Part shown: positions 8,301-51,202 of the stretch, one piece after another
How positions within the stretch are numbered: position 1 is the stretch's first letter
Layout of the letters: each line of letters starts with the position of its first letter
From: Patescibacteria group bacterium UBA4787
GTDB lineage: Bacteria > Patescibacteriota > Patescibacteriia > UBA2591 > UBA4787
Direction: 5' to 3'
Assembly (NCBI GenBank): GCA_002402995.1
Contig: DHGX01000003.1
Span: forward strand, 3,765 to 67,764
Length of the DNA stretch: 64,000 bases
Notes under the pieces: model-generated
Told to the model about the DNA's origin: nothing
The model's database searches: none
What the model saw: the letters and a program-made list of their open reading frames with translations, nothing else
Program-made: the position numbers and the translations under genes

Positions 8301-10321
8301 CCAGAGTGGTGGCGGTTACCGTGGGCAGCGGTGGCAGCACGCCCACTCCTCCGCCTGCTGAAACTCCTGTTCCAACTACTATTTCTTTATCGCTTAATCC
8401 GTCTTCGCTTTTCGCTGATGCCATTAGCCAAAGCGCGTTGACCGCTGAAGTCTTTGACCAGTTCAATAATCATGTGGCTAACAACACGCCTATCGCCTGG
8501 GATATTGTTTCTGGCAGCGGCTCTTTGGCTTCTGCTTCTACTCCAACCACGAATGGTTTGGCTTCTAACACCTACACAGCCGGCGCTCAAGCAGGCGACA
8601 TTGTCATTAAGGCCTGTACCGCTAATCTCAAATGCAATGAAAAGACATTAACCTTGAAAGCGATTGAAGGACCCTCGGTTTTAACCAGTTTAACCATTTC
8701 CCCTAAAACTCTTTCTTTAAAAAAAGGGCAAACCGCGCAATTCTCCGCGATTGCCAAGGATCAATATAATAATACTTTAACCGGTTTGGTTTTAGAATGG
8801 CTAACCAGTAATTCGTCTCTCGGCCTGATCAATTCCAGTGGCCTTTTTCAGGCTTTGGCTAAAGGCATAGTAACGATTACCGCGAAAAGCGCTGGTCTTT
8901 CTGATCAAGCCGCGGTTACTGTCACTGATACTGACGAGCCAGAGATAATTCTGCCTGTTTCACCTACGCCCGAACCGCCAACAGTTCCAATTACGCCAAC
9001 TCCGACACCCGGAACAACGCCTACGCCTATCCCAACGACACCAGGTGTGGGTACTATTACTACTCCATCGACTGGCGGGTCTGCCTCGCCAAGTCAAGGC
9101 GGGCCAGAAACAGGAATTGGCGTTGGCGCGGAAGCGCCAAGTGAAAATATTCCTATTGTTCAGTTGCCGTCGGTCTTTGAAGAGAAAATAGCTCAACTTG
9201 ACATAGTTTTTGAAAAAGCCAAAGAAATTTATCAAACTAAAATTTTAGAGAATAAAACCGTTCAAAAAGTTAATCAGCAAGCGGCTTTGCCGGTTATCGC
9301 GGTTGTTTCAGCGCTTAACGTGGCAGCCAGTGTTCCAGCCGCGGCTTCGACCCTGCCATTACTCCAATATCTTTTTCAGCTTCTCAAATTCTTTTTCACT
9401 CAACCGGCTTATCTTTTCGTCAGACGACGCAAGTCTTGGGGCACGGTCTATGATGCCATTACCAAACAGCCTGTTGGTTTAGCGATGGTTAGGCTTTACG
9501 AGTTGGTGCCGTCTTTAACCGAACAAGGATCAATCAAGAAATTGGTTCAAACCAAAGTAACCGGGCCGGATGGCCGTTATTTCTTTGCGGTTAAACCAAA
9601 GACCGATTATCAGCTCGAAGTTAATAGTGTCGATTATAATTTTCCTTCAAAATATCTTAACCAACAGCCCAGTGACCGTCTTTATCAAAATTTATATTAT
9701 GGCTCGGTTTTTCGTTCAGGGGCCGAGGGATTGATAAATTTCAATTTGCCTCTTGATTTGCAAGAGGGTAAAACGAGCATCGCCGGCTCAACCAAAAAAG
9801 TTAAGTCGTCATTTGCCAATTTAGAGGAATTTTTCAAGGCTCCGGCAGATGAAAAAGAAAAAGCTTATCACCAAGTTAAGCGTCAAGCCAATTTGAGAAA
9901 ATTGGCTCAAGGAATTTCTTATCTTTCGCCGAGCTTGGCTCTGGTTAATTTAATTATTTCACCCAACGCGCTAACTCTGGTTTTCCTTTTTGTTCATTTA
10001 ATTTTACTTTTTATCTTCAGGTTTTTTAACCCAAATGTTCTAATTAAGTCATTGGGCAGAACCTTCAATCTCAATACCCAAGAGCCGGTAGGCCAGACCT
10101 TAGTTTACTTATTTGAACCCCAATTTAACAAACTCGTTCAAACTCAGATTGCCGACACCAGGGGGAAATACGGTTTCTTGATCGGAGATGAAAAATATTA
10201 TTTGGTCGCTCAAAAACCCGGCTATGTTTTTCCTCAAGACAAAATGGAAATTGTCGGTCAAGCCGAGAGCATGGTGAAGAAAGATTTAGGGATGAAGCGG
10301 AGTCAGCAGAAAACTTCATAA
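2396..10321 (+). CDS. Giant secreted multidomain surface protein (2641 aa). Signal peptide; right-handed beta-helix (pectate-lyase-like) region; 13x ~65-aa WNGxxW repeats; FN3/PKD-like modules; 3 Big_2 Ig-like domains; Pro/Thr-rich linker; C-terminal membrane anchor with 2 CarboxypepD_reg-like domains
   Basis: Single 7.9-kb ORF with GTG start. N-terminal hydrophobic signal (…CLLLCLPNFVLAG). NNxF/NNIFY beta-helix rungs. Repeated D..NRP.V.W…WNG..W blocks. PKD-like WIKAKAGNDV…CAWDFD…GVDWNNPDSNSCQ. Big_2-like LTSLTISPKTLSLKKGQTAQF. PTPEPPTVPITPTPTPG linker. C-terminal TM, RRRKSWGTVYD…GPDGRYFF, TM, QTQIADTRGKYGFLIG…KPGYVFP. Confidence 0.8.
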   Translation: MTTYKQKIIYVFCLLLCLPNFVLAGVSQNDTTGVYANTLSDYTGISRTSNLRLDNGKIALSQNTNHQYQEDFTTAVYGASSTALWDIANHRLSLKSKNIFVAKNGLDANSGTEDAPFLTVAKALAVVQPGDTIYVKKGIYYVSSYFTSIVGTADAPITIMPYPGDRYQVIFDGEGVSLYSFGYSSLRYLTIDGFIFRNYPDGPILGGPYTCDHNIYKNSIVYGILHTGEDINCSYNKIINNLYIGGQQQLYLPNATNNAAILNNSFLKYSRDTAIYAPTAGTADHAIKNNIFYTMGNYGVDDPGHYFISYQNGGISSIDNNLYYNPFSNSYLFHYNHGAGAVYYSNNSADFSTWQGYGFDAHSLINQDPMFTPGDLGLYYLAANSPAIDAGANDSDVSYLTDGNWCTSSTNTPDTGTVDMGFHYFCGTAEAVANRYPSSGEALSNEINSNDFSTKNVSKATLTATYDLNGLAASNLVFYLSADSGANWEEVTSGVEHTFTNTGTSLYWKAVLTTNDETKTPVVTQIVVDYTYATTPVTSAQESFTDDFVTPSFQSGTEGWGGNETFGDGSGLRLTSTTDYWTWPLRSSGSYTVGGVNLGTVLSLPDSNTYTPAVVLDKQNHPAVLFKVYEGDLDTYNLFFARWNGANWVKADGVAGYDQILATSTYQITEYKLLFDTQNRPYVAFARKEADAIHTNAYFSYFNGTAWTTAQKISGSPSDWGWYLDFAIDANNRPCVVFSGYIDATDYEDIYLTCLNNGTWTYADNTTPGLENVSQVNHASYPESATIIFDNNNRPMVAWTDHTSNQVAFTRWNGATWTYADNTTPGIEYFANATADGNARLAIDGSDHPILVWRNYTVTTGGSCGFKKYYKTTTTNIYLNYWNGTAWKAMNGVDDGPETIHSRTATACNSTLPVNFKMLLDSNFRPNFAFSDCAYDPDTGWKNAFLFSKWNGSMWTEADGATPFDYNNYNVLFNAHPSYFVLDQNNYPNLILSNTSFTAWNGTAWANLINEANTSTNLGDNTVTGFLVDNDDNLFVFNSSNVIATSYQGAPAIVEYNTPGHYNANYTPTGLSTDYTYVVESVTMTSLTTDLHGLAASSLSYQVRCSNTGDWETVALNEQKTLICTNNLFNYKANLSTADPNQTPEIKNITWQITYRAIDNEAAANTLYDHNDVLSSSTTFTIDSAAAVYDATNQRIKFNPTPWRDLVNEAYDPTYLSATETGFMDNPQIITDSNNRLCAVWREGVFNKGDIYYSCWSGAAWVKADGTTGYDNVSNNTGDSDFPRLLLDNNNYPYVVWQDSTDSHASSTANYDIFFKYYDGSTWRGLKNAATHDNLSQNLGPSYYPEFVLDSVNHYPQVIWQDRSEGLWKIYYTKWNGVDWVKTNGDSGYESPTGPVISYHDSFERKPPIHQYGKIKLNSNNQPNILWQGYFNEAGASHTKSQIYFTYYNGSAWAGLENASSTRDNVSNTTSSDWNMQPNPDFAIDSSNRVYAAWIDNYPDVYGDGFYFKYFDGSNWVGLASATSQPDWIFDFMPDLASGSDDYIYHYTQVELDSQSRPHILAMKTTGWSVNRNNCYTYWNGSQWSKIDGVTGGYDSFGTGEQAEFVLKDDFPWVIYKTDRAVKFVKGTASGFESAQGVSHQTVNQASSVYPVIAKAGNGDMYGAWVEGRTTGQGSRLAIKKHSASSTTEQTATIISTAANLTSSGYRYITSATLTASATLNNGTIVYYLSADNGAHWEGPITSEVEHIFTNTGRVLKWKAVLTGDGVNKLPEIDAITVAYNISDYASSGYLISKLVQPAEIGSWDRVVVSQTLNGGTVSYQILDKNGNLVPDSELTGNSAGLTPIDSELNIASINASNTNYSSLYIKATVNSANSVSTPTITSLNAKWIKAKAGNDVVSNGAASFDATSSIGEVYTCAWDFDSSDGVDWNNPDSNSCQVDYDYTPKGGGSYTATLRIKQGTATAYDYDTRVVAVTVGSGGSTPTPPPAETPVPTTISLSLNPSSLFADAISQSALTAEVFDQFNNHVANNTPIAWDIVSGSGSLASASTPTTNGLASNTYTAGAQAGDIVIKACTANLKCNEKTLTLKAIEGPSVLTSLTISPKTLSLKKGQTAQFSAIAKDQYNNTLTGLVLEWLTSNSSLGLINSSGLFQALAKGIVTITAKSAGLSDQAAVTVTDTDEPEIILPVSPTPEPPTVPITPTPTPGTTPTPIPTTPGVGTITTPSTGGSASPSQGGPETGIGVGAEAPSENIPIVQLPSVFEEKIAQLDIVFEKAKEIYQTKILENKTVQKVNQQAALPVIAVVSALNVAASVPAAASTLPLLQYLFQLLKFFFTQPAYLFVRRRKSWGTVYDAITKQPVGLAMVRLYELVPSLTEQGSIKKLVQTKVTGPDGRYFFAVKPKTDYQLEVNSVDYNFPSKYLNQQPSDRLYQNLYYGSVFRSGAEGLINFNLPLDLQEGKTSIAGSTKKVKSSFANLEEFFKAPADEKEKAYHQVKRQANLRKLAQGISYLSPSLALVNLIISPNALTLVFLFVHLILLFIFRFFNPNVLIKSLGRTFNLNTQEPVGQTLVYLFEPQFNKLVQTQIADTRGKYGFLIGDEKYYLVAQKPGYVFPQDKMEIVGQAESMVKKDLGMKRSQQKTS
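4310..7150 (+). repeat. Array of 13 tandem ~65-aa WNG-x-x-W protein repeats (coding repeat) inside giant gene 1
   Basis: Recurring (F/Y)x(R/K/Y)WNG(A/T/S)xW…ADG(T/V)xGYD blocks, each preceded by (L/I)DxxN(R/H/Y)Px(V/I)xW. Near-identical 27-nt DNA stretch acctggacttacgctgataacaccac at ~4664 and ~4845 shows a recent unit duplication. Confidence 0.7.
7500..8340 (+). repeat. Module shared with giant gene 2 (FN3-like + beta-sandwich + PKD-like), paralogous to ~11800-12620
   Basis: Protein-level collinear similarity: YYLSADNGAHWEG…WKAVLTG vs YQMSADGGSHWEN…WKTVLTT; WIKAKAGNDVVSNGAASFDATSS…GVDWNNPDSNSCQ…RIKQGTATAYDYDT in both. Confidence 0.7.
9290..10318 (+). repeat. C-terminal anchor module (TM - CarboxypepD_reg-like - 2 TM - CarboxypepD_reg-like) paralogous to 13900-14914 in giant gene 2
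   Basis: RRRKSWGTVYD…TGPDGRYFF and …QTQIAD..G.YGFLIG..KYYLVA.KPGYVFPQDKMEIVGQ…KKDLGMK are conserved between the two giants (~65-90% aa identity over the module). Confidence 0.75.
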
Positions 10322-10534
10322 TTCAAAGAATTTGGACAAAACTGTCTGAAACATTTTTATAAATCGCCGGAATTTTTATCGAAGGGAGATGTTTTGGTTT
10401 TGTCCAACGACTTCGTTTACAAGATAGGAGAAACGATTAAATAAATTGACAGGCGTTGCTCACAGTGATATTCTTAGGATAGATACGCGGAAATTTGACT
10501 ATTGAGTTTTCTATATTTTATAACAATTTCTGAT

Positions 10535-13500
10535 ATGAAAAATTTTGGCCAAAAAATTTCAAAGAATTCGAAATTTTTGTGGTTATTGTTTATAGCAATT
10601 ATATTATCGCCTAATTTTGTTTTGGCGGCTCCCGCGCAAGACAATTCGCGCGGAACTTTTTACGACGACTTTACGAATATCGGCGGCGTTGCCTTGAGCG
10701 CGAATACCGAAGTAGACGTCGCGCATAATTGGATCGGCTTAAAGCCAGACGAACAAGGTGATTATCCGCTTTCCAGCACTTTTGATTTCACTGAAGATTT
10801 TTCCACTAATAATTTTAAGGATACAACTGATTCAATAGACATTGATTGGAATATTAATAATCGGAAATTAAAACTTTTTAAAGAGAATGATTGGACAAAC
10901 CCCGTTTCTATACCAGAAACTTATTTAGGCGGATTGGGCGTTGATACTAATACCAACAAGTTGTACGCTGGCACGGCCGCTAATCGGGAAATTTACGAAT
11001 TACAAGACGCGAGTTTTCAAAAAATGACTGGTCCATGGAACGATGGATGGTTTTATTCTTTTTCATCGTATCAAAATAAATTATACGCCAGCGGAAATAA
11101 TGGAGATTGGAGTACGAGCGACGGGATTTATGTTTACGATGGTTCTTCTTGGTCAATTTCTTCCGGCTCGCCCACAGAAGGATCTGGCAATTCAGCTATG
11201 GCCATGGCTGTTTATGACAATAAACTTTATCTTGGAACGCGCAATGATTTTAATTACGCCAAAGTTTTTTCTTTTGATGGCGCTTCTTGGCAAGACACGA
11301 ATGTCACCAGCACTCAAATAGCGTTTATTTCTTTAGTGGTTTACAATAACAAACTTTACGCCGGTTCGTCTAACGACTCAGGTTGGACAAATCCCGAGGT
11401 CTTTGTTTATGATGGCAATGCATGGAATTTATCAACTCAATGTCCAGACGCTTCTAGTGGAGCGGCACACTTGGTCGTCCACGACAACAAGCTTTATGCG
11501 TCCTGTGAGAATCCGTCTTATGGCAGTCGAATGTTTGTTTACGACGGCGATACTTGGTCAGCAATGGCAAACATAGATTATCGCGTTTATCAATTAATTT
11601 CCTACGATAACAAACTTTACGCCGCTACTTCCAACGGACTTTACGTTTTTGACAATAATTCGTGGGACTTAGAATATCCCGGTTCTGTCGGGGCATTAGC
11701 GGTTTATAATAATCGGCTTTATCTCGGTCTCGGCAATACTGCTAATATTGTTTCTATTGGCACAAATTTTAGTTATTCATCTTCCGGCGTCGCGGTTTCT
11801 CTAAAAATTAATGGCAACGCGTCTGGCGTTCAGTCAGCCAAAATTAGCCCGACCCAGATTCTAAATGGTCAAACCATTAATTATCAAATGTCAGCTGATG
11901 GCGGCAGTCATTGGGAAAATGTTACCCCAGGTTTAGAGCATATTTTTATCCACCCGGGCGATGATTTAAGATGGAAAACGGTTTTAACCACTTCAAACAT
12001 TAGTGCTTCGCCAGAAATTACCAATTTAGAAATTCAATATCAGGCAACTGCTTCCTCGGTCACTTCAATTTCTATCACTCCTTCAGAAGTCGGCTCTTGG
12101 GATAAAATCATTTTTAATCATACTTTAAATGACCAGGCCATTACTTATCAGATTTTGGACTCTTCGGACGCTTTAATACCTGATTCAGTTTTGCCGGGTA
12201 ACGCCGCGGGTTTTTCCGCTAGCGGTACTTCTATGACGATTGATTTGTATGCGCTTCCAAGCGCGACTTATCCGTCCATTAAAATTAAAGCGAATTTGCT
12301 CGCCAGTTGCAATCTTTATACCCCAACCATCAATTCCTGGAAAACTTACTGGATTAAAGCCAAAGCTGGCGATGATATCGCGTCCGGAGGCTCCGCTTCT
12401 TTTGACGCCACTTCTTCTGTTGGTGATAGCTACACCTGTGCCTGGGATTTTGACGTTTCTGATGGCGTTGATTGGAACAATCCTGATTCCAATTCTTGCC
12501 AACCCATTTATGATTATCGTTCCAATAAAGGAGGCGGCATTTACACCGCCTCTCTTAGGATTAAACAAGGAACTGCCACGGCTTATGATTATGACACTAA
12601 GGTCGTCACGGTTAATTTAGGTAGTAGTAGTGACGAAGAAAGCCCTAAATATTTAAATTTCTCCGCTAACCGCCGTATTTTATTGGCTGATTCCCCGAAT
12701 CAGAGCATAATTAGCGCTCAAGTTTTAAACAAAAATAAAAAAGCTGTACTCGACGGGACTACGATTGTATGGAGTCTTCTTTGCCCGAATCTAACCACGG
12801 ACTTCAAAGATCTTGCCTGTGGAACATTATCTAACAATCAAAGTTTGACGGCAAATGGCGCGGTTTCTACAATTTTTACGCCGGGACAATTAGCTGGTTC
12901 AATAATAGTAAGGGGTTGCGCGATCAACGGTGTCTGCGCCGAACAAGCCATCAAGGTGGCTCTTAAGCAGCGCGGAAAAATAATTTTGAAATCTAATTAT
13001 TCTATTTTGCCGGCTGACGGAAAGTCCAGAATAAAAATTTACGTTAAGGTATATGACCGTTATTTGAATCCTTGGTCAAATGTTGTTATTTCTTTAAAAT
13101 TGATTAGTTTAGGCGCGGATCAAAAAGAAATCAAATTCACAGGTGAACTGTCGTCAACAGAGATAAAAACAGACAATAACGGCGAAGCGCTTGTCTATTA
13201 TTCGCCGGGCGAACAAATCGGAAAAATAAAAATTAAAGCTAATATAGAAAGCAATCAATCGTTGAGCGGGTTCAGGGTTTTGAATAAACTGGCTTATTTT
13301 TTAAAATACCTCACGCCTTCTTTTTTAAAATCAACCGCCAGCCATTTTTTTAATTTTGTAATGGCGGCCACGGCCCCAAAAATTTACGCCCCATATCCAA
13401 TTCAACCCGTGCCCATAATTGAGCCCCTTCCGCTTCCGGAAGAAGAAATTCCAGAAGAAGAAATTGTTTTGCCGCCAAATGACGAAGAAGTGGTCGGAGA

Positions 13501-14917
13501 ACTTGACCTTGATTTAGTTGATTCAGAATTAATGACCACGATTGTTGAAGATGAACCTCAGCCATTAGTTCAACCTCCAGATCCATCTGCTCCTACGCCA
13601 CTTTCCGAACAGTCAGGATCCCAAATAGGTGTTCCTAGTGAGAGTTATTCATCAGCGCCGCCGCCGTTACCGGTATATCTTCGCGCTCCAGTTTCGATTC
13701 CTTCAGCAGAAGCCGCGCCGACTATTATTGAAATTCATTATCCCGAGACAAAAGCGGCAGAGACGGCCAGTGATCCGTCTGGCTTTACGGAAATAATTGA
13801 GAAAACAACCGATTTGACACAAAACACAATAAGCGCGGCAACCGTGATCGTTAAAAAAATTCACACAAATCCGACGGTTCAAACTGTTAATCAAGTCGTA
13901 GCGCCAACAGTCTCGGCTGTAACCGTTGCGGCTGTGGCCGCTTCCGGCGCGGCTTCAAGCGCCACCGCCGTTCCTTTATTCAATATGGCTGTTCTTTTAT
14001 TCACCCAGCCTTCGTATCTTTTGACTCGGAGAAGGAAATCATGGGGCACGGTTTATGACTCCCTGTCCAAAGAACCAGTCTCTTTGGCTATAATTCGTCT
14101 TTATGAAATAATTTCGCAAGCTAATGAACAAAATAAAACTAAGAAACTTATCCAAACCCGAGTAACAAGCGCGGACGGACGTTATTTCTTTTTAGTCAAA
14201 CCATATACTAATTATCAAATTGAAGTTGTTTGTAATGGTTATAAATTCCCCAGCCATATTCTGAAAGCAGGCGTTCAAGAAACCATTTATACGGATGTCT
14301 ATTACGGCGAAGTTTTTAATTCTAACGATAATACTATAATTAATCCGAATTTGCCGCTTGATTCGCAGGAGGGGAAAGTTTCTTTGGTCGGTTTTAACAA
14401 AAAAATTAAAACTATTTTTGCCGATTTAGAGCAGTTTCTAAAAGCGCCAATTAATGCAAAAGAAAAAGAATACCGAAGAATCAAAAAAGAGGCCTTGACC
14501 AAAAAGGCGCTTAGGTTTCTTGCTTATCTCGCGCCTATTTTAGGCTTTATTAATTTATTAATTTCACCCAATAAATGGACATCATTATTATTCATTTTGC
14601 AGTTATTAATGCTTTTGGTTTTCCGGTATTTTATTGAGAAGATTTTGCCATATAAACAACATCTAGGGCGCGTTTTTGATATTGACACCAATAAGAATAT
14701 CGGACAATCTTTGATTTATCTTTTTGAGCCGCAATTCGGGAAATTAATTCAAACGCAAATTGCCGACAATGACGGACTCTACGGATTTTTAATCGGCAAT
14801 CAGAAGTATTATTTAGTCGCCGAAAAACCCGGCTATGTTTTTCCCCAAGACAAGATGGAAATTGTCGGTCAGGTCGAAGGCATAGCTAAAAAAGATTTAG
14901 GTATGAAAAAAATCTAG
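10535..14917 (+). CDS. Giant secreted surface protein 2 (paralog of giant 1). Signal peptide; Kelch-like beta-propeller repeats; FN3/PKD-like shared module; Big_1-like Ig domains; acidic/Pro-rich linker; same C-terminal TM + 2x CarboxypepD_reg-like anchor
   Basis: ATG at 10535 (MKNFGQ…; track ORF begins at an upstream TTG, 10502). Signal …LLFIAIILSPNFVLAAPA echoes giant 1. Repeats YDNKLYAGT…VYDG..W (x7). Shared PKD module. EPLPLPEEEIPEEEIVLPP linker. C-terminal module as in giant 1. Confidence 0.8.
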   Translation: MKNFGQKISKNSKFLWLLFIAIILSPNFVLAAPAQDNSRGTFYDDFTNIGGVALSANTEVDVAHNWIGLKPDEQGDYPLSSTFDFTEDFSTNNFKDTTDSIDIDWNINNRKLKLFKENDWTNPVSIPETYLGGLGVDTNTNKLYAGTAANREIYELQDASFQKMTGPWNDGWFYSFSSYQNKLYASGNNGDWSTSDGIYVYDGSSWSISSGSPTEGSGNSAMAMAVYDNKLYLGTRNDFNYAKVFSFDGASWQDTNVTSTQIAFISLVVYNNKLYAGSSNDSGWTNPEVFVYDGNAWNLSTQCPDASSGAAHLVVHDNKLYASCENPSYGSRMFVYDGDTWSAMANIDYRVYQLISYDNKLYAATSNGLYVFDNNSWDLEYPGSVGALAVYNNRLYLGLGNTANIVSIGTNFSYSSSGVAVSLKINGNASGVQSAKISPTQILNGQTINYQMSADGGSHWENVTPGLEHIFIHPGDDLRWKTVLTTSNISASPEITNLEIQYQATASSVTSISITPSEVGSWDKIIFNHTLNDQAITYQILDSSDALIPDSVLPGNAAGFSASGTSMTIDLYALPSATYPSIKIKANLLASCNLYTPTINSWKTYWIKAKAGDDIASGGSASFDATSSVGDSYTCAWDFDVSDGVDWNNPDSNSCQPIYDYRSNKGGGIYTASLRIKQGTATAYDYDTKVVTVNLGSSSDEESPKYLNFSANRRILLADSPNQSIISAQVLNKNKKAVLDGTTIVWSLLCPNLTTDFKDLACGTLSNNQSLTANGAVSTIFTPGQLAGSIIVRGCAINGVCAEQAIKVALKQRGKIILKSNYSILPADGKSRIKIYVKVYDRYLNPWSNVVISLKLISLGADQKEIKFTGELSSTEIKTDNNGEALVYYSPGEQIGKIKIKANIESNQSLSGFRVLNKLAYFLKYLTPSFLKSTASHFFNFVMAATAPKIYAPYPIQPVPIIEPLPLPEEEIPEEEIVLPPNDEEVVGELDLDLVDSELMTTIVEDEPQPLVQPPDPSAPTPLSEQSGSQIGVPSESYSSAPPPLPVYLRAPVSIPSAEAAPTIIEIHYPETKAAETASDPSGFTEIIEKTTDLTQNTISAATVIVKKIHTNPTVQTVNQVVAPTVSAVTVAAVAASGAASSATAVPLFNMAVLLFTQPSYLLTRRRKSWGTVYDSLSKEPVSLAIIRLYEIISQANEQNKTKKLIQTRVTSADGRYFFLVKPYTNYQIEVVCNGYKFPSHILKAGVQETIYTDVYYGEVFNSNDNTIINPNLPLDSQEGKVSLVGFNKKIKTIFADLEQFLKAPINAKEKEYRRIKKEALTKKALRFLAYLAPILGFINLLISPNKWTSLLFILQLLMLLVFRYFIEKILPYKQHLGRVFDIDTNKNIGQSLIYLFEPQFGKLIQTQIADNDGLYGFLIGNQKYYLVAEKPGYVFPQDKMEIVGQVEGIAKKDLGMKKI

Positions 14918-20349: not shown

Positions 20350-20400
20350 GCAAAGCTCGAAATTTCTTCACTCGTAGTCAAATCAAAAGAAGACTTTTGT

Positions 20401-20429
20401 TTGACAACCCCTTTTAGATGATTTATAAT
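20401..20429 (+). promoter_or_regulatory. Consensus sigma70-type promoter (TTGACA-17-TATAAT) upstream of clpP
   Basis: TTGACAaccccttttagatgattTATAAT exactly matches the -35/-10 consensus with 17-nt spacing, ~55 nt upstream of clpP. Confidence 0.6.
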
Positions 20430-22676: not shown

Positions 22677-22705
22677 TTATTTTGTGCTATAATTAATTTA
22701 TTATG

Positions 22706-23019
22706 CCCCGTAATACAACTTCCAGAATGTTCTTCTTTATTTATGTTCTCCAAAGCCTTTCAAAGACAAGAAATTATATATCGGCTATACTAACAATCTC
22801 AAGCAACGAATCAAAGAACATCAAAGGGGCAGATTTTTTTCAACCAAATTCAGATTGCCTTTTCAGCTTATTTATTTCGAGGGCGGTCTTGACGAAAATG
22901 ACGCCAAGCGCCGCGAAGGTTATCTAAAAACCACCCAAGGACGTCGATTCCTTGGTCTAAGATTAATCCAGTACCAACGTCTTAAAAAGGCGCTTGCGGC
23001 TGGAAGATGATATACGGGG
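22706..23019 (+). mobile_element. GIY-YIG mini-element, family 1, full-length copy. Bounded by imperfect TIRs CCCCGTAATACAACTTC / GAAGATGATATACGGGG and flanked by TATG on both sides
   Basis: The same 17-20-nt terminal motifs recur at 44858-44998 (+) and 49359-49621 (-). The right end abuts the ATG of the downstream ymdB-like gene (…ACGGGGT-ATG). Confidence 0.6.
22727..23010 (+). pseudogene. GIY-YIG nuclease superfamily protein (YhbQ/UPF0213-like, ~95 aa) interrupted by a -1 frameshift in an A3 run (~22771-22773)
   Basis: Frame 1 gives MFFFIYVLQSLSKTRN. Frame 3 continues LYIGYTNNLKQRIKEHQRGRFFSTKFRLPFQLIYFEGGLDENDAKRREGYLK… One extra A restores a contiguous GIY-YIG domain. Confidence 0.65.
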
Positions 23020-23020
23020 T

Positions 23021-23815
23021 ATGCGAATATTGTTTTTCGGCGACATTATGGGCGGTTTGGGCCGCGCGGCTGTAAAAAAAATTATACCACAATATAAAAA
23101 ACGGTATAAACCTGATTTGATTTTGGCAAATGGAGAAAACTTGGCCCACTTAAAAGGTATGACACCTAAAACTGTTAAAGAAGTTTTGGATTCGGGTATT
23201 GATTATCTGACTAACGGAAATCATTTTTTTGGCAGAAAAGAAATTATAGAAGTAGTTAACAAAAAAATGCCAATTATCAGGCCAGCGAATTATCCAGAAG
23301 ATACTCCGGGCCAAGGATATGTGATCATAAAAAAAGACAAGCAAAATATTTTGTTAATCAATCTGCTGGGCCGGGTTTTTTTAAGACCCGTCCTTGATTG
23401 CCCTTTTCGCAAAGCAGAAGAGATTTTAAAAAAAACTAAAGCGAATCTAAAGAAAAATATCATTATCGTTGATTTTCACGCAGAGGCGACTTCGGAGAAG
23501 GCGGCTTTCGGTTATTGGCTAGACGGCAAGGTTTCCGCGGTGGTTGGCACTCATACACACGTACCAACAGCCGATAATAAGATTCTATCCAAAGGCACGG
23601 CTTATGTCACTGATATCGGAATGGTTGGCGCTAGCGATTCGATTATCGGAGCCGCTAAAGAAGGTATTATTCGATCATATCTAACACAAATACCAGAACC
23701 TTTGATTTCACCTCAAGAAGGGCAAGCGACTATCAACGCGGTTTTAATTGAGATAGACGACAAAAGTCATTTATCTAAAAAGATTATTCGTTGCGACGAA
23801 GAAGTATTAATCTAA
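23021..23815 (+). CDS. ymdB: YmdB-like 2',3'-cyclic-nucleotide phosphodiesterase (TIGR00282 metallophosphoesterase)
   Basis: [15 protein letters not shown]…[15 protein letters not shown]…NGNHFF…; ATG at 23021 (track ORF starts at an upstream in-frame TTG). Confidence 0.8.
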
Positions 23816-28264: not shown

Positions 28265-29275
28265 ATGTTTAGAAAATATTTTTTTATTTTATATATTTTT
28301 CTTGTTTTTTTGCTCGTCATTGTGTATTATAGATGGCAGGCGTATGTTCTTTTACACGAAGATTTTGAATTGAAACAAATTAATATTACGCGAGGAGAAT
28401 CAGCGAGTAATGTTATTCAGCAACTCAAAAACCAGAAAATAATTGAAAGCGAACTCGGCTTTAAAATTTATGTTTATCTAAGGAATCGCACGAATCTTTT
28501 TCAGTCGGGTCAATATTATCTTAGTCCGACCATGAGCTGGAAAGAAATTCTTAATCTTCTAACATCAAAACAAGCCAACGAGCAAACTATAGTTGTTCGC
28601 GAAGGATGGACGCAGAGGGAAATAGCCGATTATTTAGAAAAATCAGGACTATTTTCTCAACAGAATTTTATAGCCACTTCTTATCAGCTCGGGTCTTCGG
28701 GTGTTTTGGACTATAGTTTTTTATCAGACAAACCGAGCAATCACTCTTTAGAGGGCTATCTTTTCCCTGATACTTATCGAGTTTATCGCGACGCTAAACC
28801 AGAAACGATCATTAAGAAGATGTTGGACAATTTCAATGATAGGCTTGATTCAGATATAAGAGAAGAAATTGTTCGTCAACATAAAAGTATTTTTGAGGTT
28901 TTAATTATAGCCTCTATTGTTGAGAAAGAGGCTGCCAGTGAAACCGACAGACAACTTGTGGCTGACATATTTTTAAGGCGTTTAGAAAATCGCATGCCGC
29001 TACAATCTTGCGCAACTATAAATTATATTTTAACTCAAAAGACAAAACATCTTAGTCTAGAACAAACGAAAATAGACTCGCCATACAATACTTACAAATA
29101 CTATGGCTTGCCGCCCGGACCGATTGGAAATCCAGGCATAAGTTCAATTAAAGCTGTTCTGTGGCCCGCAAAAAATAATTATTGGTATTTCCTTTCAACT
29201 GACAATAGCCAAATTATTTATAGCAAAACGAATAAAGAGCACGACCTTAATAAAGAAAAATATTTACCCCGTTAG
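28265..29275 (+). CDS. mltG: Endolytic murein transglycosylase MltG/YceG family
   Basis: N-terminal TM; …EGYLFPDTYRV…; …YNTYKYYGLPPGPIGNPG…. The last 3 codons and the TAG stop lie inside a MITE copy. Confidence 0.8.
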   Translation: MFRKYFFILYIFLVFLLVIVYYRWQAYVLLHEDFELKQINITRGESASNVIQQLKNQKIIESELGFKIYVYLRNRTNLFQSGQYYLSPTMSWKEILNLLTSKQANEQTIVVREGWTQREIADYLEKSGLFSQQNFIATSYQLGSSGVLDYSFLSDKPSNHSLEGYLFPDTYRVYRDAKPETIIKKMLDNFNDRLDSDIREEIVRQHKSIFEVLIIASIVEKEAASETDRQLVADIFLRRLENRMPLQSCATINYILTQKTKHLSLEQTKIDSPYNTYKYYGLPPGPIGNPGISSIKAVLWPAKNNYWYFLSTDNSQIIYSKTNKEHDLNKEKYLPR

Positions 29276-29376
29276 AGATTCAGCCGACATTATTTTTATA
29301 GAGAATATTTCGAGCGATAGCGCCTTACGGCTCGCGTCCAACTATCACGCCGTTCGGTCTTAAATCTCTAACGGGG
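29267..29376 (+). mobile_element. 110-bp MITE-like element, copy 1 (14-bp TIR CCCCGTTAGAGATT / AATCTCTAACGGGG; flanked by TTTA)
   Basis: Near-identical ends and central GCC-TTACGGCTC core shared with the copies at 41013-41122 and 49431-49540. Supplies the stop codon of mltG (…TTACCCCGTTAG). Confidence 0.7.
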
Positions 29377-31673: not shown

Positions 31674-32114
31674 ATGACAAAAAATATTTTCATTAAGATA
31701 AAAAATTTTTATCATACGGAGTTAGGTTGGCAAATGTTTCATTATTTTATCGCGGGCAGTGTTTGCACGCTTTTTGATTTCGCGGTTTATTTTTTTCTGA
31801 CCCGCTTTTTTAATTTTTGGCAAACACATTATGAGTGGGCCAATATTATTGCCTTGGTATTGAGCGCCACCATATTTTTTATTTGGAGTAAAAAAATAGT
31901 TTTTAAAAATCAAGACAAAAAAATATTTTGGCAATATATTAAATTTTGGTTGATGGTTGTCGTTACCACCCTGATCTATCAATGGCTTTTTATTCTGTTT
32001 ACTCGCGTTAATATTCACGATTTATTGGCCAAAGTTTTTTGCGCTATTATTGTCTTGTTGGTCAGATTTATTACCAACAAGTTTTGGGTATTTAAAAACC
32101 CTGCTCTTTTTTGA
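31674..32114 (+). CDS. GtrA-family membrane protein (polysaccharide synthesis associated)
   Basis: 146 aa, 4 TM, GtrA-like pattern …FHYFIAGSVCTLFDFAVYFFLTR…. Confidence 0.6.
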   Translation: MTKNIFIKIKNFYHTELGWQMFHYFIAGSVCTLFDFAVYFFLTRFFNFWQTHYEWANIIALVLSATIFFIWSKKIVFKNQDKKIFWQYIKFWLMVVVTTLIYQWLFILFTRVNIHDLLAKVFCAIIVLLVRFITNKFWVFKNPALF

Positions 32115-32762: not shown

Positions 32763-33057
32763 AGGACCTCCTTAAATTGATTGTTATTTTTCAAAGATCT
32801 TGTTGTTCGATACAACAATATTAGCACAAAAATCGTTTTTTGTCAACCCCGTAGAATAAAATGAATAAGCCAATCAGCGGATCGGCTTATTAAAAAAATA
32901 TTCATTTTCCCCGCCTGCCAGAGCCTTAAAATATCTTTTGAGGGAAAAAATACCTTTTATTTTAATTAAGAGCCAAAATTTATCATAAACACTTTAGGCA
33001 ATTGGCTGGCAGGTCTATGGGGCTTCGGTCTGTAATTATAAATTCTGTATTCTATCG

Positions 33058-33110
33058 TCTTCCGCCAGCTGGCGGATTCTATTTTCTACTTTCTATTTTC
33101 TATTTTCTTT
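33058..33110. repeat. GC-palindrome TCCGCCAGCTGGCGGA followed by tandem CTATTTTCTA(C/T)TTT repeats (member of a recurring intergenic motif family)
   Basis: Same composite motif at 35466-35556, 39497-39578 and in reverse at ~63843-63900. Confidence 0.5.
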
Positions 33111-36816: not shown

Positions 36817-36950
36817 TTCTTGCCGTTTTAATTATTCGGTGCTATAATTTATGAGCGAGGACGTAAAATAAAAGTCTTCTTTTAATTTGACTCCGAGCGA
36901 ATAAATTTCAGGAGCGAAGCGAATCTTATTAATAAATATAATTTTAAACT

Positions 36951-47340: not shown

Positions 47341-47817
47341 ATGGGAATTGATAAAAAATTGTCTACAAAAGAAATGTCAGAAAGCGAGGAATCGTCGAAG
47401 GGTATAAAAATTGACTGGGATGAAAATGAGGCATTGCCTCGTGTCCAGCTGACGCTTGGCGGCAGTAGATATGATGCTGTTTTGGCAAATAACGCTTTCT
47501 ATGCAGGTATGATTGAAGTTCCGGAAGACGAAAGAAGAAAAGGTGTAGGATCTCAATTGCTTATGGAGCTTATTGAAATCGCCAAGAAACAAGGCATTAA
47601 TCAAATAGTGCACACACTCCAAAGCGCAGAAGGATTAATACTTATCAGCCAAAAATTAAAACAGCCGGATAGAAAATATTATTATCAGGCGAAACAGGAA
47701 ATTCCTTTAGCCGAAGCAGTTGAAATATTAAAAAGAAAAAAAGAGGAAGGGAAAGAAGCGGATAAAACTATCATGGTGCAATCTACAACCTACATAGATC
47801 AATTGGAAGGAAAATAA
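47341..47817 (+). CDS. Putative GNAT-family acetyltransferase
   Basis: GNAT motif-A-like RRKGVGSQLLMELIEIAKKQG. Confidence 0.4.
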   Translation: MGIDKKLSTKEMSESEESSKGIKIDWDENEALPRVQLTLGGSRYDAVLANNAFYAGMIEVPEDERRKGVGSQLLMELIEIAKKQGINQIVHTLQSAEGLILISQKLKQPDRKYYYQAKQEIPLAEAVEILKRKKEEGKEADKTIMVQSTTYIDQLEGK

Positions 47818-47850
47818 TCTCGGTTGGTTTTATTATTAACTTGTTAATTT

Positions 47851-48207
47851 ATGAATTTATTTGAAATTAAAAAAATTGTAGAAAATAACCCCATGGCTTT
47901 TGCTACGGTCTCAGAAAATTATAGACCCAATGTTATTGCCACTGCTTTTGTCAAAATTGTTTCTAAAAATCAGCTTTTAATTACAGACGTTTGGATGAAA
48001 CAAACAAAAAAGAATATTTTAGACAATAAAAATGTTTGTTTGGCGGTATGGAATAAAAATTGGCAAGGTTATAAATTAATCGGTCGAGCTGAATATTTTG
48101 TGCGCGGAAAATGGAAAAATCTCGTTGACAAAACGAAGGAAAATAAAAATGAGAAAGTTAAGGGCGCCATTTTAGTTAAAATTTCAAGAATTAGCCCCCT
48201 TCATTAA
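47851..48207 (+). CDS. Pyridoxamine 5'-phosphate oxidase-like FMN-binding split-barrel protein
   Basis: …MAFATVSENYRPNVIATAFVKI…VCLAVWNKNWQGYKLIGRAEYF…. Confidence 0.55.
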   Translation: MNLFEIKKIVENNPMAFATVSENYRPNVIATAFVKIVSKNQLLITDVWMKQTKKNILDNKNVCLAVWNKNWQGYKLIGRAEYFVRGKWKNLVDKTKENKNEKVKGAILVKISRISPLH

Positions 48208-48229
48208 GATTATATAATCTCTTTGATCT

Positions 48230-49354
48230 ATGAAAATTGGTATTGATGCTCGGTTATATGGTTCAAGCGCCAAGGGCATTGGTCGCTACGTCAAAGAATT
48301 GATAGAAAATTTAGAAAAAACAGACTCAAAAAATGAGTATTTTATTTTTTTAAACCGACGAGGTTTTGAAGAATATCAGCCTCAAAATAAAAACTTCCGC
48401 AAAATTTCAGTGAATATCAGAGAATATTCAATCTTTGAACAGATTCTTTGGCCGAGAATTTTAATGAGTTATAAATTGGATTATGTCCATTTTCCTCATT
48501 TTAATGTGCCGTTGTTTTATTTCCGGCCATTCGTCGTAACGATTCATGACCTGATTCATTGGCAACACAGCAAAGAAGCTTCTACTAAAAGCTGTATTTT
48601 GGCTAACTTGAAAAAAGTGATATTTAGAATGGTAGTCAGAAGCGCCGTTAATCGCGCTAAAAAGATTTTTGTTGTTTCAGAAACAATCAAAAAAGAGCTC
48701 TTAAGTGAATTTAAAATTTCTTCGGAGAAAATTATCGTGACTTATGAGGGGGCTTACGACACAAAAGATATTTTTGAAGATTCAAAAAATATTAATATTT
48801 TAAATCGCGTTAAAAGCCCATATCTTTTTTATGTGGGCAACGCCTATCCTCACAAGAATTTATATTTTTTAGCTAAATCATTTTTATCGGCCACTAGTCA
48901 ATTACCAGAAGATCTTTATTTGGTTTTAGCTGGTCGCAAGGATTATTTTTACGAACAGCTTGAGCAGAAAATTAAAGATTTGCCCGATAACGAAAAAATC
49001 TATTTGCTCGGAGAGGTGACAGACCAAGGGCTATCTTTGCTTTATCAGAACGCTTTGGCTTATGTTTTCCCGTCTTTGGCCGAAGGCTTTGGTTTGCCCG
49101 GCCTGGAGGCTATGGCCAATAATCTGCCGGTTTTAGCCAGCGAGATTGGTCCTTTGCCGGAAGTTTATGGCGGAGCCGCTTTATATTTTGATCCTAAAAA
49201 TGAAAATGATTTGGCAGAAAAAATAATTAAAATTTACCAAGATCAAAAACTAAGGGAATCGCTGATTGCAAAAGGCCGAGAGCAAGTTAAAAAATATTCT
49301 TGGGAAAAATGCGCCAGAGAAACATTGGCAGTTTATAATTCTTTAAAAAAATGA
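48230..49354 (+). CDS. Glycosyltransferase family 4
   Basis: …FPSLAEGFGLPGLEAMANNLPVLASEIGPLPEV… C-terminal GT-B signature. Confidence 0.8.
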   Translation: MKIGIDARLYGSSAKGIGRYVKELIENLEKTDSKNEYFIFLNRRGFEEYQPQNKNFRKISVNIREYSIFEQILWPRILMSYKLDYVHFPHFNVPLFYFRPFVVTIHDLIHWQHSKEASTKSCILANLKKVIFRMVVRSAVNRAKKIFVVSETIKKELLSEFKISSEKIIVTYEGAYDTKDIFEDSKNINILNRVKSPYLFYVGNAYPHKNLYFLAKSFLSATSQLPEDLYLVLAGRKDYFYEQLEQKIKDLPDNEKIYLLGEVTDQGLSLLYQNALAYVFPSLAEGFGLPGLEAMANNLPVLASEIGPLPEVYGGAALYFDPKNENDLAEKIIKIYQDQKLRESLIAKGREQVKKYSWEKCARETLAVYNSLKK

Positions 49355-49358
49355 GATG

Positions 49359-49621
49359 CTTTGGCAAACCCCGTATATCATCTTCGATATTTTTAATAAT
49401 TTTTTAGGTCTTAGTAAGTATTTATGTTTACCCCGTTAGAGATTCAGCCGAGACTATCTTTTGTCGCCCAACTAAGGCAAAGCCGCCTCACGGCTCTTGT
49501 CAATCTCCTAAATATATTTAATTTTAAATCTCTAACGGGGTTTATCAATCTAACTAACAAAATTCTCCCGGGTCTTTTTTGGGCCGATGATAGTCGGCCC
49601 AGTCGAAGTTGTATTACGGGG
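49359..49621 (-). mobile_element. GIY-YIG family-1 element, ORF-less derivative on the minus strand, carrying a nested MITE insertion
   Basis: Reverse-complement termini cgCCCCGTAATACAACTTC … GAAGATGATATACGGGGtttg. Interior matches the 44858-44998 copy except for the 110-bp MITE + TAAA duplication at the TTTATAAA site. Confidence 0.6.
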
Positions 49622-51202
49622 CGTAAAATAAAAACGTTGTTAAACGGAACGGTGGGCGGAGGTTTTGTTATCATCTCAGCCTTCTCGATTATCAGCAGAA
49701 TTTTGGGCCTGTTACGGGATAGATTGCTTTCTTCTCATTTTGGCGTGGGTTCAGTTTTAGATGCTTATTACGCAGCCTTTCGTTTGCCTGACTTGATCTT
49801 TAACACTTTTGTTTTAGGGGCGCTGGCTTCTGCTTTTATTCCGGTTTTCTTAGAGATTTGGCATAAAGATCAAAAAGAAGCCTGGCGCGTGACTAATTCA
49901 ATTCTTAATATTTTGCTGTCAGTTGTTTTTCTTTTGGTTATAGTGATGGAGATTTTCGCCAAACCGATTGTTCAGATTTTGGTTAGTGGTTTTACTCCGG
50001 AGAATATTCATTTAACCGTCAGCTTAACTAGAATTATGCTGATCGGCATTCTATTTTTTACGGTTAGCAATATTGCCGGCGCCGTGCTTAATTCTTTCCG
50101 CCGATTTTTCTTTTATGCTTTAAGCCCGATTGCTTATAATTTAGGAATTATTTTGGGTATCGTATTTTTGGTGCCCATGTTTGGCCTCAAAGGTTTGGCT
50201 TTTGGCGTAGTCCTCGGTTCTTTGATGCATCTATTGGTTCAATTTCCGGCTTTTTTGAAAACCGGTTGGCGTTGGCAGTTGATTTTTGATTTAAAAAATC
50301 AATTCGTGAAAACAATCGGACGTTTGATGTTGCCACGATTTTTCGGCCTGGCCATAGGGCAATTAAATCTTATGGTAGCGACTTTTATCGGTTCTTTATG
50401 GGGTATAGGCGCTATCACTGTTTATAGTTTAGCTTTTAATTTAATCAGTTTTCCTTTGAATATTTTCGGCGTTTCATTGGCCTTGGCGGTTTTTCCTGTT
50501 TTTACCAGCGCTGTTGTTAATAATTCTCGCGAAGATTTTGTTTATTATTTTTCTAAGACCGTCCGCAGAATTTTATTCCTGACTATTCCCAGTATTTTTG
50601 TTATTTTTCTTTTACGCCAAGAAATTGTAGGCTTAATTTTGGGCGCGGGAAAATTTTCTTATGATAATATCAATTCAACCGCGATGGTTCTCGGCGCTTT
50701 CGCCTTGTGTCTTGTCTCTGAGAGCTTGTCTGCAGTTATGGTGCGCGCCTTCTATTCCCACAAAGACACTATAACGCCAGTTAAGGCCGCGATGGTTGAT
50801 TTTTGCGTAAATATAGTCGGATGTTTAATTTTAGGAAGAAAATTCGGGGCATTGGGCTTGGCTTTGGCGTTTTCTCTTTCTTCGATTTGCGAATCTGTGG
50901 TTTTAATTATTTTCTTGAGGTTAAAGACCGGGCCGCTTGATTTTCGACGGATTGTTTCAGCCTTCTTTAGAATCCTAGGGGTGTCTTTGGCGATGTTTTT
51001 GGTTATGTGGGGGACGAAAATGTTTTTATCTTCTTATTTCGCTCAAGATGGTTCATTGTTTTTGTTGAAAAAATTTATTATAATTTCTTTGGCGGGCTTG
51101 GTTAGTTTCTTGGGTTTAACCTACCTCTTCAAATTTGATGAATTTGATGCCGCTTGGAGTGTTTTTCGTTTAAATAAACCAGAAAGAATCAATGGAAAAT
51201 AA
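49424..51202 (+). CDS. murJ: Lipid II flippase MurJ (true start probably TTG ~49637 or GTG ~49652; first ATG 49424 lies in the MITE)
   Basis: …FSIISRILGLLRDRLLSSHFGVGSVLDAYYAAFRLPD… MurJ N-terminal signature, 14 TM. Confidence 0.8.
   Translation: MFTPLEIQPRLSFVAQLRQSRLTALVNLLNIFNFKSLTGFINLTNKILPGLFWADDSRPSRSCITGRKIKTLLNGTVGGGFVIISAFSIISRILGLLRDRLLSSHFGVGSVLDAYYAAFRLPDLIFNTFVLGALASAFIPVFLEIWHKDQKEAWRVTNSILNILLSVVFLLVIVMEIFAKPIVQILVSGFTPENIHLTVSLTRIMLIGILFFTVSNIAGAVLNSFRRFFFYALSPIAYNLGIILGIVFLVPMFGLKGLAFGVVLGSLMHLLVQFPAFLKTGWRWQLIFDLKNQFVKTIGRLMLPRFFGLAIGQLNLMVATFIGSLWGIGAITVYSLAFNLISFPLNIFGVSLALAVFPVFTSAVVNNSREDFVYYFSKTVRRILFLTIPSIFVIFLLRQEIVGLILGAGKFSYDNINSTAMVLGAFALCLVSESLSAVMVRAFYSHKDTITPVKAAMVDFCVNIVGCLILGRKFGALGLALAFSLSSICESVVLIIFLRLKTGPLDFRRIVSAFFRILGVSLAMFLVMWGTKMFLSSYFAQDGSLFLLKKFIIISLAGLVSFLGLTYLFKFDEFDAAWSVFRLNKPERINGK
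49431..49540 (+). mobile_element. 110-bp MITE-like element, copy 3 (nested in GIY-YIG remnant, overlapping the 5' end of the murJ ORF)
   Basis: Same TIRs/core; TTTA on both sides. The empty-site homolog at 44858-44998 has a single TTTATAAA. Confidence 0.7.

Follow-up and report, generated by a model that had tools for sequence, protein, structure and literature searches.

Background

The Ssn/NTS system of Neisseria represents the closest known counterpart of the elements described in this work. Ssn are 94-aa single-domain GIY-YIG proteins which bind a hairpin repeat (NTS/SRM) (Chenal et al., Nat Commun 2025, PMC11893778). They cut single-stranded DNA beside the hairpin, not double-stranded DNA or RNA, and are active when the hairpin is built from two halves (PMC11893778). 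The NTS-ssnA-NTS layout has been called IS-like by the authors, who only hypothesised transposition, and Rickettsia is listed among the SRM-rich genera (PMC11893778). Rickettsia palindromic elements (RPEs), in turn, are palindromic repeats of ~100-150 bp, inserted in frame in protein-coding genes and read through (PMC10969869).

The sequences analysed here come from a stretch of 64,000 nucleotides, hereafter called the window, of the patescibacterium UBA4787. They comprise repeats of different end types, among which type A and type B are the main ones, and small genes encoding GIY-YIG proteins. We know of no conventional transposase associated with RPEs, whose mobilising enzyme has to our knowledge never been identified. 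We also know of no GIY-YIG enzyme shown to transpose DNA, those known to us being enzymes that hydrolyse it; all the accepted prokaryotic IS families of which we are aware rely on DDE, DEDD, HUH, serine or tyrosine enzymes.

A nested insertion next to murJ

A type A short element, non-coding and made of 139 bp of its own, lies on the minus strand at 49369-49621, interrupted by a type B miniature element (MITE) of 110 bp. In the minus-strand reading the composite opens with CCCCGTAATACAACTTCGA (49621-49603) and closes with TCGAAGATGATATACGGGG (49387-49369). The insert spans 49431-49540 on the plus strand, and is delimited by perfect 16-bp inverted ends, CCCCGTTAGAGATTCA and TAAATCTCTAACGGGG. 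A paralogue of the host element, 141 bp long and free of the MITE, resides on the plus strand at 44858-44998. This copy and the reverse complement of 49369-49621 are collinear end to end and, with the insert and one TTTA left out, match at 122 of 142 positions (86%). The sole large gap in the alignment measures 114 bp, and corresponds to the 110-bp element plus one extra TTTA. The two copies of the duplicated target fall, according to the same alignment, at 49427-49430 and 49541-49544 (plus strand), and the empty target at 44934-44937 reads TAAA on the plus strand, hence TTTA in the sense of the filled copy. The filled site has the structure ATG TTTA, 110 bp, TTTA TCAATC on the plus strand, the paralogue, in the same sense, TG TTTA TAAATC. 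A second paralogous empty site is provided by a type A short copy found without nested insert in another groundwater genome (L073). Chance similarity is ruled out by the recurrence of the ends of both elements in the window. The 17-nt termini of the host element are each found exactly three times, versus 0.1-0.2 expected, and the 14-nt end of the 110-bp element has six exact occurrences, arranged as three inverted pairs. The composite as a whole is flanked by TACG and TTTG, and the outer type A element thus has no clean target duplication. There is hardly any doubt about the order of events: a type A short element became established between a GT4 glycosyltransferase gene and murJ, and the 110-bp type B element entered its TTTA later.

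An earlier note on this DNA had read the region as nested mobile elements, with a 110-bp MITE duplicating a 4-bp TTTA target, and the empty site preserved in a paralogous copy. All this is borne out by the pairwise alignment of the two copies, in which TTTA is found on both sides of the insert and only once in the paralogue, and by the orthologous comparisons and the flanks of metagenome copies reported below. The size of the insert and its TAAA/TAAA borders in the minus-strand reading stand as well; the start of the region had been set at 49359, and has to be moved 10 bp inwards, to the true terminus at 49369.

The junctions could in principle be assembly artefacts, with misjoined repeats that only simulate a nesting. 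The same population is represented in three other assemblies, all 100% identical to the window, which do break inside the composite, and none spans it. One ENA contig (k141_671412) ends at 49536, another (k141_1071487) begins at 49481, the JGI contig starts at 49535, and of the Logan contigs one ends at 49389, and one starts at 49592. Yet every junction of the composite is covered by at least one independent contig, even if no single such contig includes the whole of it. The left junction with the host element is included in one ENA contig and the right one in the other, and the 56 bp by which the two contigs overlap are internal to the MITE, copy-specific and unique in the window. Nesting of the same kind occurs, in addition, in unrelated genomes (L016, L187). 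Misassembly of the composite, judged from contigs, is unlikely, and a nesting altogether created by misjoined repeats may be regarded as very improbable. A gene neighbouring murJ was used for the contig look-up, the exact 592-aa MurJ product (from ATG 49424) being without a database record. The look-ups returned at the composite only contigs stopping inside it.

Consequences for murJ

As it stands, the murJ reading frame extends on the plus strand from 49424 to 51202, and from its ATG at 49424 it traverses the MITE and the host element's left part without a stop; the earlier note had rightly signalled that the composite overlaps the 5' end of this frame. Homology to orthologous MurJ proteins starts at codon 4 (CGT at 49622), and the next in-frame start is a TTG at 49637. 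In a close relative (L216, with a MurJ 94% identical) the gene begins with ATG CCT TGG CAT AAG ATA AAA, and an equivalent start is found in L218. Homology of the window to these relatives resumes at 49620, at the very end of the host element, and from codon 4 onward reads CGT AAA ATA AAA. The native first three codons of murJ, start codon included, are lost in this genome, a loss which the earlier note had missed.

Both relatives carry a 175-aa GT4-like gene upstream of murJ, and 646 bp of the L216 sequence upstream of murJ are replaced in the window by the 263-bp composite. As the host element has no matching duplication at its borders, and its left end directly adjoins codon 4 of murJ, at a point where the relative has 646 bp more, an element-adjacent deletion is plausible. 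In the simplest reading, such a deletion, proceeding from the end of the host element, would have removed the 175-aa gene and the murJ start codon.

Within the murJ frame the MITE is read in the same frame as in the copy hosted by the gene of a CCA-adding enzyme. The 73 codons upstream of murJ are free of stops (p ~0.007 overall, and ~0.09 without the MITE part). This run was discarded as proof of a translated murJ extension, given the latter value, obtained once the intrinsically open frame of the MITE is set aside. Because about half of the stop-free stretch is MITE sequence in a frame open throughout the family, the start of murJ may be either ATG 49424 or TTG 49637.

The type B MITE family

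Two more copies of the 110-bp element are present in the window, both on the plus strand. The one at 29267-29376 provides, with its CCC CGT TAG, the stop codon of a YceG/MltG gene, the one at 41013-41122 is inserted in frame within the ORF of the CCA-adding enzyme, to which it adds 38 residues. All three copies feature perfect 16-bp inverted ends and TTTA on both sides, and their mean column identity is 77% in an alignment which includes 30 bp of flanking DNA. The ends are paired in every predicted fold (z ~ -6). The element has the features of a generic MITE, being small, non-coding and multi-copy, with inverted ends and a target duplication versus an empty site.

The type B end sequence was found in at least 120 public metagenome contigs. 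Flanks were analysed in 89 non-redundant copies, 40-141 bp long, among the metagenome matches listed. Identical 4-mers border 54 of these 89 copies (TTTA 28, TAAA 20, TTAA 3, CAAG 2, CCTG 1), and random re-pairing of the flanks yields 22 such copies on average and 36 at most; the figures have to be read keeping in mind that the search pattern fixed one flank as TWWA and left the other free. The existence of rare pairs which are not TWWA, as CAAG/CAAG and CCTG/CCTG, argues for a true duplication rather than for sequences carried by the element. Mobility is further documented by a related genome (L042, ~86-90% nucleotide identity), in which one more type B MITE occupies a site that is empty in the window (~28289), and the site orthologous to 29267 carries a type B element in the flipped orientation.

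The sum of element length and duplication is divisible by 3 in 45 of the 89 listed copies (p = 6e-4), and all the metagenome copies located inside a continuous reading frame (8 of 8) have an in-frame length. In the 41013 copy the 38 residues (FTPLEIQ...KSLTG) follow the GGxVRD/DxD region of the CCA-adding enzyme and precede what remains of its head domain, and alignment to solved enzymes leaves a gap precisely at the insert.

The copies are 73-87% identical among themselves. They are therefore old, and may no longer be active.

Short type A elements

The paralogue at 44858-44998 is flanked by TATG on both sides (44854-44857 and 44999-45002), and the second ATG is the start codon of a GT2 glycosyltransferase gene. 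In L216, which also lacks the composite, the orthologous position shows one CATG only, in place of the TATG, 141 bp and TATG of the window, and the GT2 gene starts there. A full-length homologue of the short element is found at an unrelated locus in L073; it measures 134 bp, is 82% identical to the 44858-44998 copy (blastn), and is flanked by TTTG/TTTG. The L042 genome carries, near 32092, a 142-bp element with type A ends, a different interior and TTTA/TTTA flanks, which has no counterpart in the window.

The type A short copies and a 314-bp element with a GIY-YIG gene (22706-23019, see below) have in common ~20 bp at each end, with the terminal 17 nt identical in all three. The host element of the composite had been described earlier as a GIY-YIG remnant. 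This part of the earlier reading does not hold, since nothing beyond the ends is common to the GIY-YIG element, and both the homologue at an unrelated locus and the absence at the L216 orthologous site indicate that the host element was inserted as a short unit. A gene decayed in place is ruled out by the same two observations. Like generic MITEs, the short type A elements are small (139-141 bp), host no gene, and are found in two copies in the window; their ends, 17-20 bp long, feature a fixed 3-nt mismatch. They are best classed, by their termini, as MITEs of the family of the GIY-YIG element. On comparative grounds both type A and type B prove to be mobile, as shown by presence/absence at orthologous sites and by flanking 4-mers which match within copies and differ between copies.

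The ends fold into very stable stems, and those of type A have an ATG codon immediately on either side, a position in which RNA structure could affect translation of the host gene. One could accordingly regard the repeats as conserved hairpins with a structural or regulatory function, such as terminators or elements for RNA processing or translation, held in place by selection. Immobility is refuted by the orthologous empty sites, and by presence/absence with target duplication between close relatives; copies also reside inside coding sequences, and a search of the window against Rfam at gathering thresholds identified tRNAs only, with no RNA family matching the repeats. Hairpins kept in place by selection are, in sum, the least probable of the explanations considered, and the chances that they account for the repeats are minimal. 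An RNA role of the stems could coexist with mobility, not replace it.

Full-length elements carrying GIY-YIG genes

Full-length members of both types measure ~310-340 bp, and carry between the inverted ends only an 86-102-aa single-domain GIY-YIG gene. The type A representative in the window is the 314-bp element at 22706-23019 (plus strand), the termini of which are those of the short copies. Its GIY-YIG gene, interrupted by one frameshift, matches Pfam PF01541 as sole domain (E = 1.7e-14). TATG is found on either side (22702-22705 and 23020-23023), and the second ATG starts ymdB; the YmdB profile begins 3 residues past this ATG. The type A protein has at least 476 homologues, ~101 aa long and with an invariant N-terminus, MP[S/R]NTTS. 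Among 482 candidate stretches from species-representative genomes 465 relatives were confirmed, and 80 loci, nearly all from Patescibacteria MAGs, were kept for locus analysis. In 58 elements the gene fits exactly between CCCNGTAATACAACTTCC... and ...GGAAGTTGATATACNGGG, for a total of 306-324 bp with few exceptions.

When paired across the gene, the two ends give a helix of 7 bp followed, after an invariant 3x3 ATA/ATA mismatch, by one of 10 bp. Covariation is marked, since 97.6% of cells are paired, versus 83.8% in shuffles, and compensatory double changes occur across genomes at 12 of 17 end pairs; the outer helix was partly selected for complementarity by the search, which inflates this part of the signal, and the last three pairs of the inner helix are unselected. 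In one genome (L162) a short and a full-length type A element feature the same lineage-specific variant of the ends. Tandem type A copies were found at one locus (L184), and at another (L187) a 74-bp element of the same family is nested in frame within the nuclease gene, flanked by CAAG/CAAG.

The 58 elements are flanked by TATG/TATG in 37 cases, by NATG/ATGN in 9, by ATGA/ATGA in 5, and by TGAA and TGGA in one case each. An ORF of 100 codons or more starts at the right-hand ATG in 52 of the 58, versus 21% of the TATG sites at the same loci (p ~ 5e-29). About 90% of full-length type A elements are thus located at the start codon of a host gene, and are oriented as the host gene; in the window two genes host such insertions, ymdB and that of the GT2 glycosyltransferase. 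The left end encodes the N-terminus of the nuclease, and the start codon is usually the duplicated ATG: the ORF starts at the left copy, the host keeps the right copy, ~10 nt past the nuclease stop. The type A element, as its sequence reads, has no start codon of its own. Upstream of the type A insertions neither a conserved motif nor a Shine-Dalgarno-like motif at fixed distance was found.

GIY-YIG is a classic homing-endonuclease fold, and it may be asked whether the elements spread by homing. A free-standing endonuclease would cut empty alleles, the element would be copied by double-strand-break repair, and short copies would be decay products. The only NCBIfam match of the GIY-YIG protein, weak and below threshold, is to group I intron endonucleases, and one type A protein (P0076) is found in a single genomic context, at a fixed locus in ten samples, with no sign of recent jumps. 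Both facts would suit homing. Type A elements are instead found at dozens of unrelated loci, which have only (T)ATG in common (TTTA for type B), and are associated with target duplications, which are not a product of homing; the proteins consist of a single domain, with no DNA-binding domain, and the short elements have homologues at unrelated loci and are nested in each other. Homing-type spread looks improbable in the light of these data. An intact relative (P0001) 91% identical to the GIY-YIG pseudogene of the window has been recognised; exact look-up of P0001 gave no database record, and an orthologous empty site was found for the short elements and none for the full-length element.

The DNA of four full-length type B elements was inspected. 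At L016 the type B ends enclose an 86-aa GIY-YIG gene, the flanks are TAAA/TAAA, and a mini-element of 47 bp with CAAG/CAAG is nested inside. At L219 the gene lies within type B ends flanked by TGAA/TGAA, and these flanks overlap a glycosyltransferase start codon; the architecture is more degenerate at L059 and L100. The type B protein has 5576 homologues, mostly of exactly 86 aa, which end with RFLSLTG. This peptide is the translation of the type B right end, hence the right end encodes the C-terminus, and the size and common end of most homologues indicate that the stop comes directly after it. The stop codon is supplied by the duplicated TGAA in L219, and is TAA in L059. Omnitrophota, WOR-3 and Flavobacteriales are among the hosts of type B nucleases. 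Further clades have a third end type, CCCCGTAGTGAAACTTCAAA, on their flanks. A fourth marks the second GIY-YIG pseudogene of the window (42392-42682, plus strand), delimited by perfect 21-bp inverted ends, AACCCCTCACTTGAAAAAGAT. Longer candidates, of 594-3053 bp and seemingly bounded by type B ends, turned out to be spurious pairings beside ordinary MITEs.

The solved structures closest to the GIY-YIG proteins are those of the UPF0213 proteins BH0048 and EF2693, and a protein search of a plasmid collection gave only two matches, distant and UPF0213/YazA-like. Both GIY-YIG genes of the window are frameshifted, and no type B GIY-YIG gene is found within it; for these reasons a source of nuclease acting in trans in this genome is an assumption.

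A candidate mobilising enzyme

The above data suggest that the GIY-YIG nuclease is the enzyme which mobilises the elements. According to the model which we favour, the short type A and type B elements would be derivatives with no autonomy of their own, mobilised in trans by the cognate nuclease. On the model of Ssn, the nuclease may recognise the stem formed in single-stranded DNA by pairing of the two ends, and cut beside it. Integration would take place through cuts staggered by 4 nt, and targets differ in the two families, TTTA/TAAA being preferred by type B, (T)ATG by type A elements. Taken as a whole, the model is held to be probable, with confidence tempered by its main weakness, as a nuclease active on single-stranded DNA by itself gives no account of the 4-bp duplication.

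The main competing view is that the repeats are ordinary MITEs moved by a DDE-type transposase encoded elsewhere, and GIY-YIG genes are passengers, or separate selfish genes. DDE transposition is classically recognised by terminal inverted repeats and by a target duplication that is short and AT-rich; both are seen here, with inverted repeats that are perfect. Strand transfer, moreover, is not known for GIY-YIG nucleases, and the genome is seen over 64 kb only. Among the scanned window ORFs of at least 100 aa (a 2641-aa ORF at 2396-10321 was left out), though, none has a transposase or integrase domain, and no longer element with these ends was noticed in ~200 loci fetched. In about 60 cases the ends enclose a GIY-YIG gene exactly and overlap its first or last codons, and different GIY-YIG clades are associated with different end types, a co-diversification not expected of a passenger gene. 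Mobilisation by a DDE enzyme is accordingly deemed unlikely, though clearly less so than homing.

Mobilisation by GIY-YIG nucleases may be placed in a wider frame. It is tentatively proposed, at a little less than even chances, that single-domain GIY-YIG nucleases are the transposases of an unrecognised class of minimal insertion sequences of ~310-340 bp. The hairpin ends of these elements would overlap the first or last codons of their own gene, start or stop codons would be borrowed from the 4-bp duplication, and start codons of host genes would be the preferred targets. The class may be the source of MITE- and RPE-like palindromes in Patescibacteria and other phyla, and Ssn/NTS of Neisseria may represent a domesticated branch of it.

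The elements together may be the visible tip of a new transposon class and, if driven by GIY-YIG enzymes, such a class would imply a new transposition chemistry. At ~0.3 kb, these would also be about the smallest self-contained mobile elements known to us. Nested insertion, paralogous and orthologous empty sites, matching 4-bp flanks and co-varying ends are what the IS-like hypothesis put forward for Ssn predicts, and the features documented here name concrete proteins and DNA substrates for testing. The elements are also a candidate source for RPE-like in-frame palindromic insertions. Their recognition is useful for the annotation of ultra-small bacteria, as they explain why gene starts are over-extended or displaced (murJ, GT2, ymdB), why essential genes such as that of the CCA-adding enzyme have in-frame inserts, and why contigs break recurrently.

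Relation to known systems

In a full-text literature search no mention was retrieved of GIY-YIG genes with inverted ends and target duplication, of their insertion targeted to start codons, or of the end sequences described here, keeping in mind that absence from that search is not proof of absence. Partial likeness to several described systems is nonetheless evident.

GIY-YIG homing genes, as those of phage Seg proteins and I-TevI relatives, have in common with the elements described here the catalytic fold, and are small selfish genes wedged between host genes. They differ in having a separate DNA-binding domain and one homing site, and in lacking inverted ends, duplications and non-coding derivatives. 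Classical bacterial MITEs (Correia, Nezha, RUP) are similarly small and multi-copy, have terminal inverted repeats and target duplications, undergo nesting, and affect neighbouring genes. Their autonomous partners, however, are IS elements with DDE transposases, none of which was found here.

REP/REPIN-RAYT (TnpA-REP) and IS200/IS605 systems are similar in organization, with short palindromes flanking one small nuclease gene, recognition of a hairpin in single-stranded DNA, and non-autonomous copies outnumbering the gene. Those systems rely on an HUH tyrosine transposase and produce no target duplication, whereas GIY-YIG genes and 4-bp duplications are the rule here, and no Y1 transposase domain was detected among the scanned window ORFs. 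The likeness to RPEs is one of behaviour, and regards in-frame insertion, seen here in the CCA-adding enzyme and in the intragenic metagenome copies. In contrast to RPEs, the present elements are clearly delimited by terminal inverted repeats, duplicate 4 bp of the target, and have a gene as candidate partner.

The resemblance to Ssn involves several traits. Proteins have a single GIY-YIG domain and similar size (~90-100 aa there, 86-102 aa here), and the gene is flanked on both sides by an inverted-repeat motif which is also dispersed in the genome, as seen here for the 58 type A genes and for three other end types; protein and repeat co-diversify in both systems. In contrast, the flanks are here complementary half-sites which pair across the gene, in Ssn two complete hairpins, and the published SRM consensus HGTCWY..RNCYNB has no matches in the window on either strand. 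The 4-bp duplications, empty sites, nesting and start-codon insertion described here have no reported equivalent for Ssn, and hosts are mainly Patescibacteria. Taken narrowly, the composite next to murJ is an ordinary nested MITE; considered with its relatives, it is a new variant of the themes set by Ssn-associated repeats and by MITEs.

Insertions at coding genes

Copies of the 110-bp MITE, the mobile element with type B inverted ends, are found in or at coding genes. The copy at 41013-41122 lies in frame within the gene for the CCA-adding enzyme (ORF 40742-42388), and contributes 38 extra residues to the nucleotidyltransferase head domain of a protein which looks intact outside the insert. 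The YceG/MltG gene takes its TAG stop from the copy at 29267-29376, and its product ends in ..KYLPR* rather than in the otherwise predicted ..KYLR*. In a relative (locus L042, 3616-3726) a MITE resides at the same site, but its interior runs the other way, a difference which could be due either to a flip in place or to re-insertion.

Comparison of window positions 49357-49640 with 5362-6010 of L216, a locus from another relative, revealed that the composite (49369-49621, minus strand), a short type A element interrupted by the MITE, occupies the place of a 175-aa GT4-like gene and of the first three murJ codons found in relatives; murJ has no native start codon in the window. Directly downstream of the GT4 gene, L216 carries a 33-bp mini hairpin of the third end type (5385-5417, CCCCAGTAGTAGAAAC..GTTTCACTACGGGG). 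Its position is equivalent to that of the composite, and the site may be an insertion hot spot.

The host element of the composite and the short type A copy at 44858-44998 are mutually inverted. In all assemblies contigs break in or at these two copies, and a Logan contig (L002), corresponding to window 44916-49389, starts inside one and ends inside the other. It is conceivable that the intervening 4.4-kb segment inverts within the population.

Other repeats and GIY-YIG elements

An inverted pair of 47-nt repeats (87%) is found at 20359-20405 and 36863-36909, directly 3' of two cell-wall genes encoding a Mur ligase and a MurA-like protein. Each copy includes a GTCAAA..TTTGAC hairpin, and the pair may represent either a further family of small repeats or terminators that the two genes have in common. 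A repeated CCGCCAGCTGGCGG hairpin, set within TTCTA-type short repeats at 33042-33095 and 39518-39571, looks like a terminator. Repetition is seen also within two adjacent, very large ORFs (2396-10321, 2641 aa; 10502-14917, 1471 aa), which have several internal repeats in common (62-83% identity) and probably encode paralogous surface proteins.

A second frameshifted GIY-YIG gene (42392-42682) lies between inverted ends of 21 bp that match perfectly (AACCCCTCACTTGAAAAAGAT) and are of a type distinct from the other two; no clear target duplication surrounds this element. In other genomes, a full-length GIY-YIG element is duplicated in tandem (L184, 2504-3125), and mini-elements are nested in frame in GIY-YIG genes at two loci (L187, 1415-1804; L016, 10014-10352), each with a CAAG/CAAG duplication.
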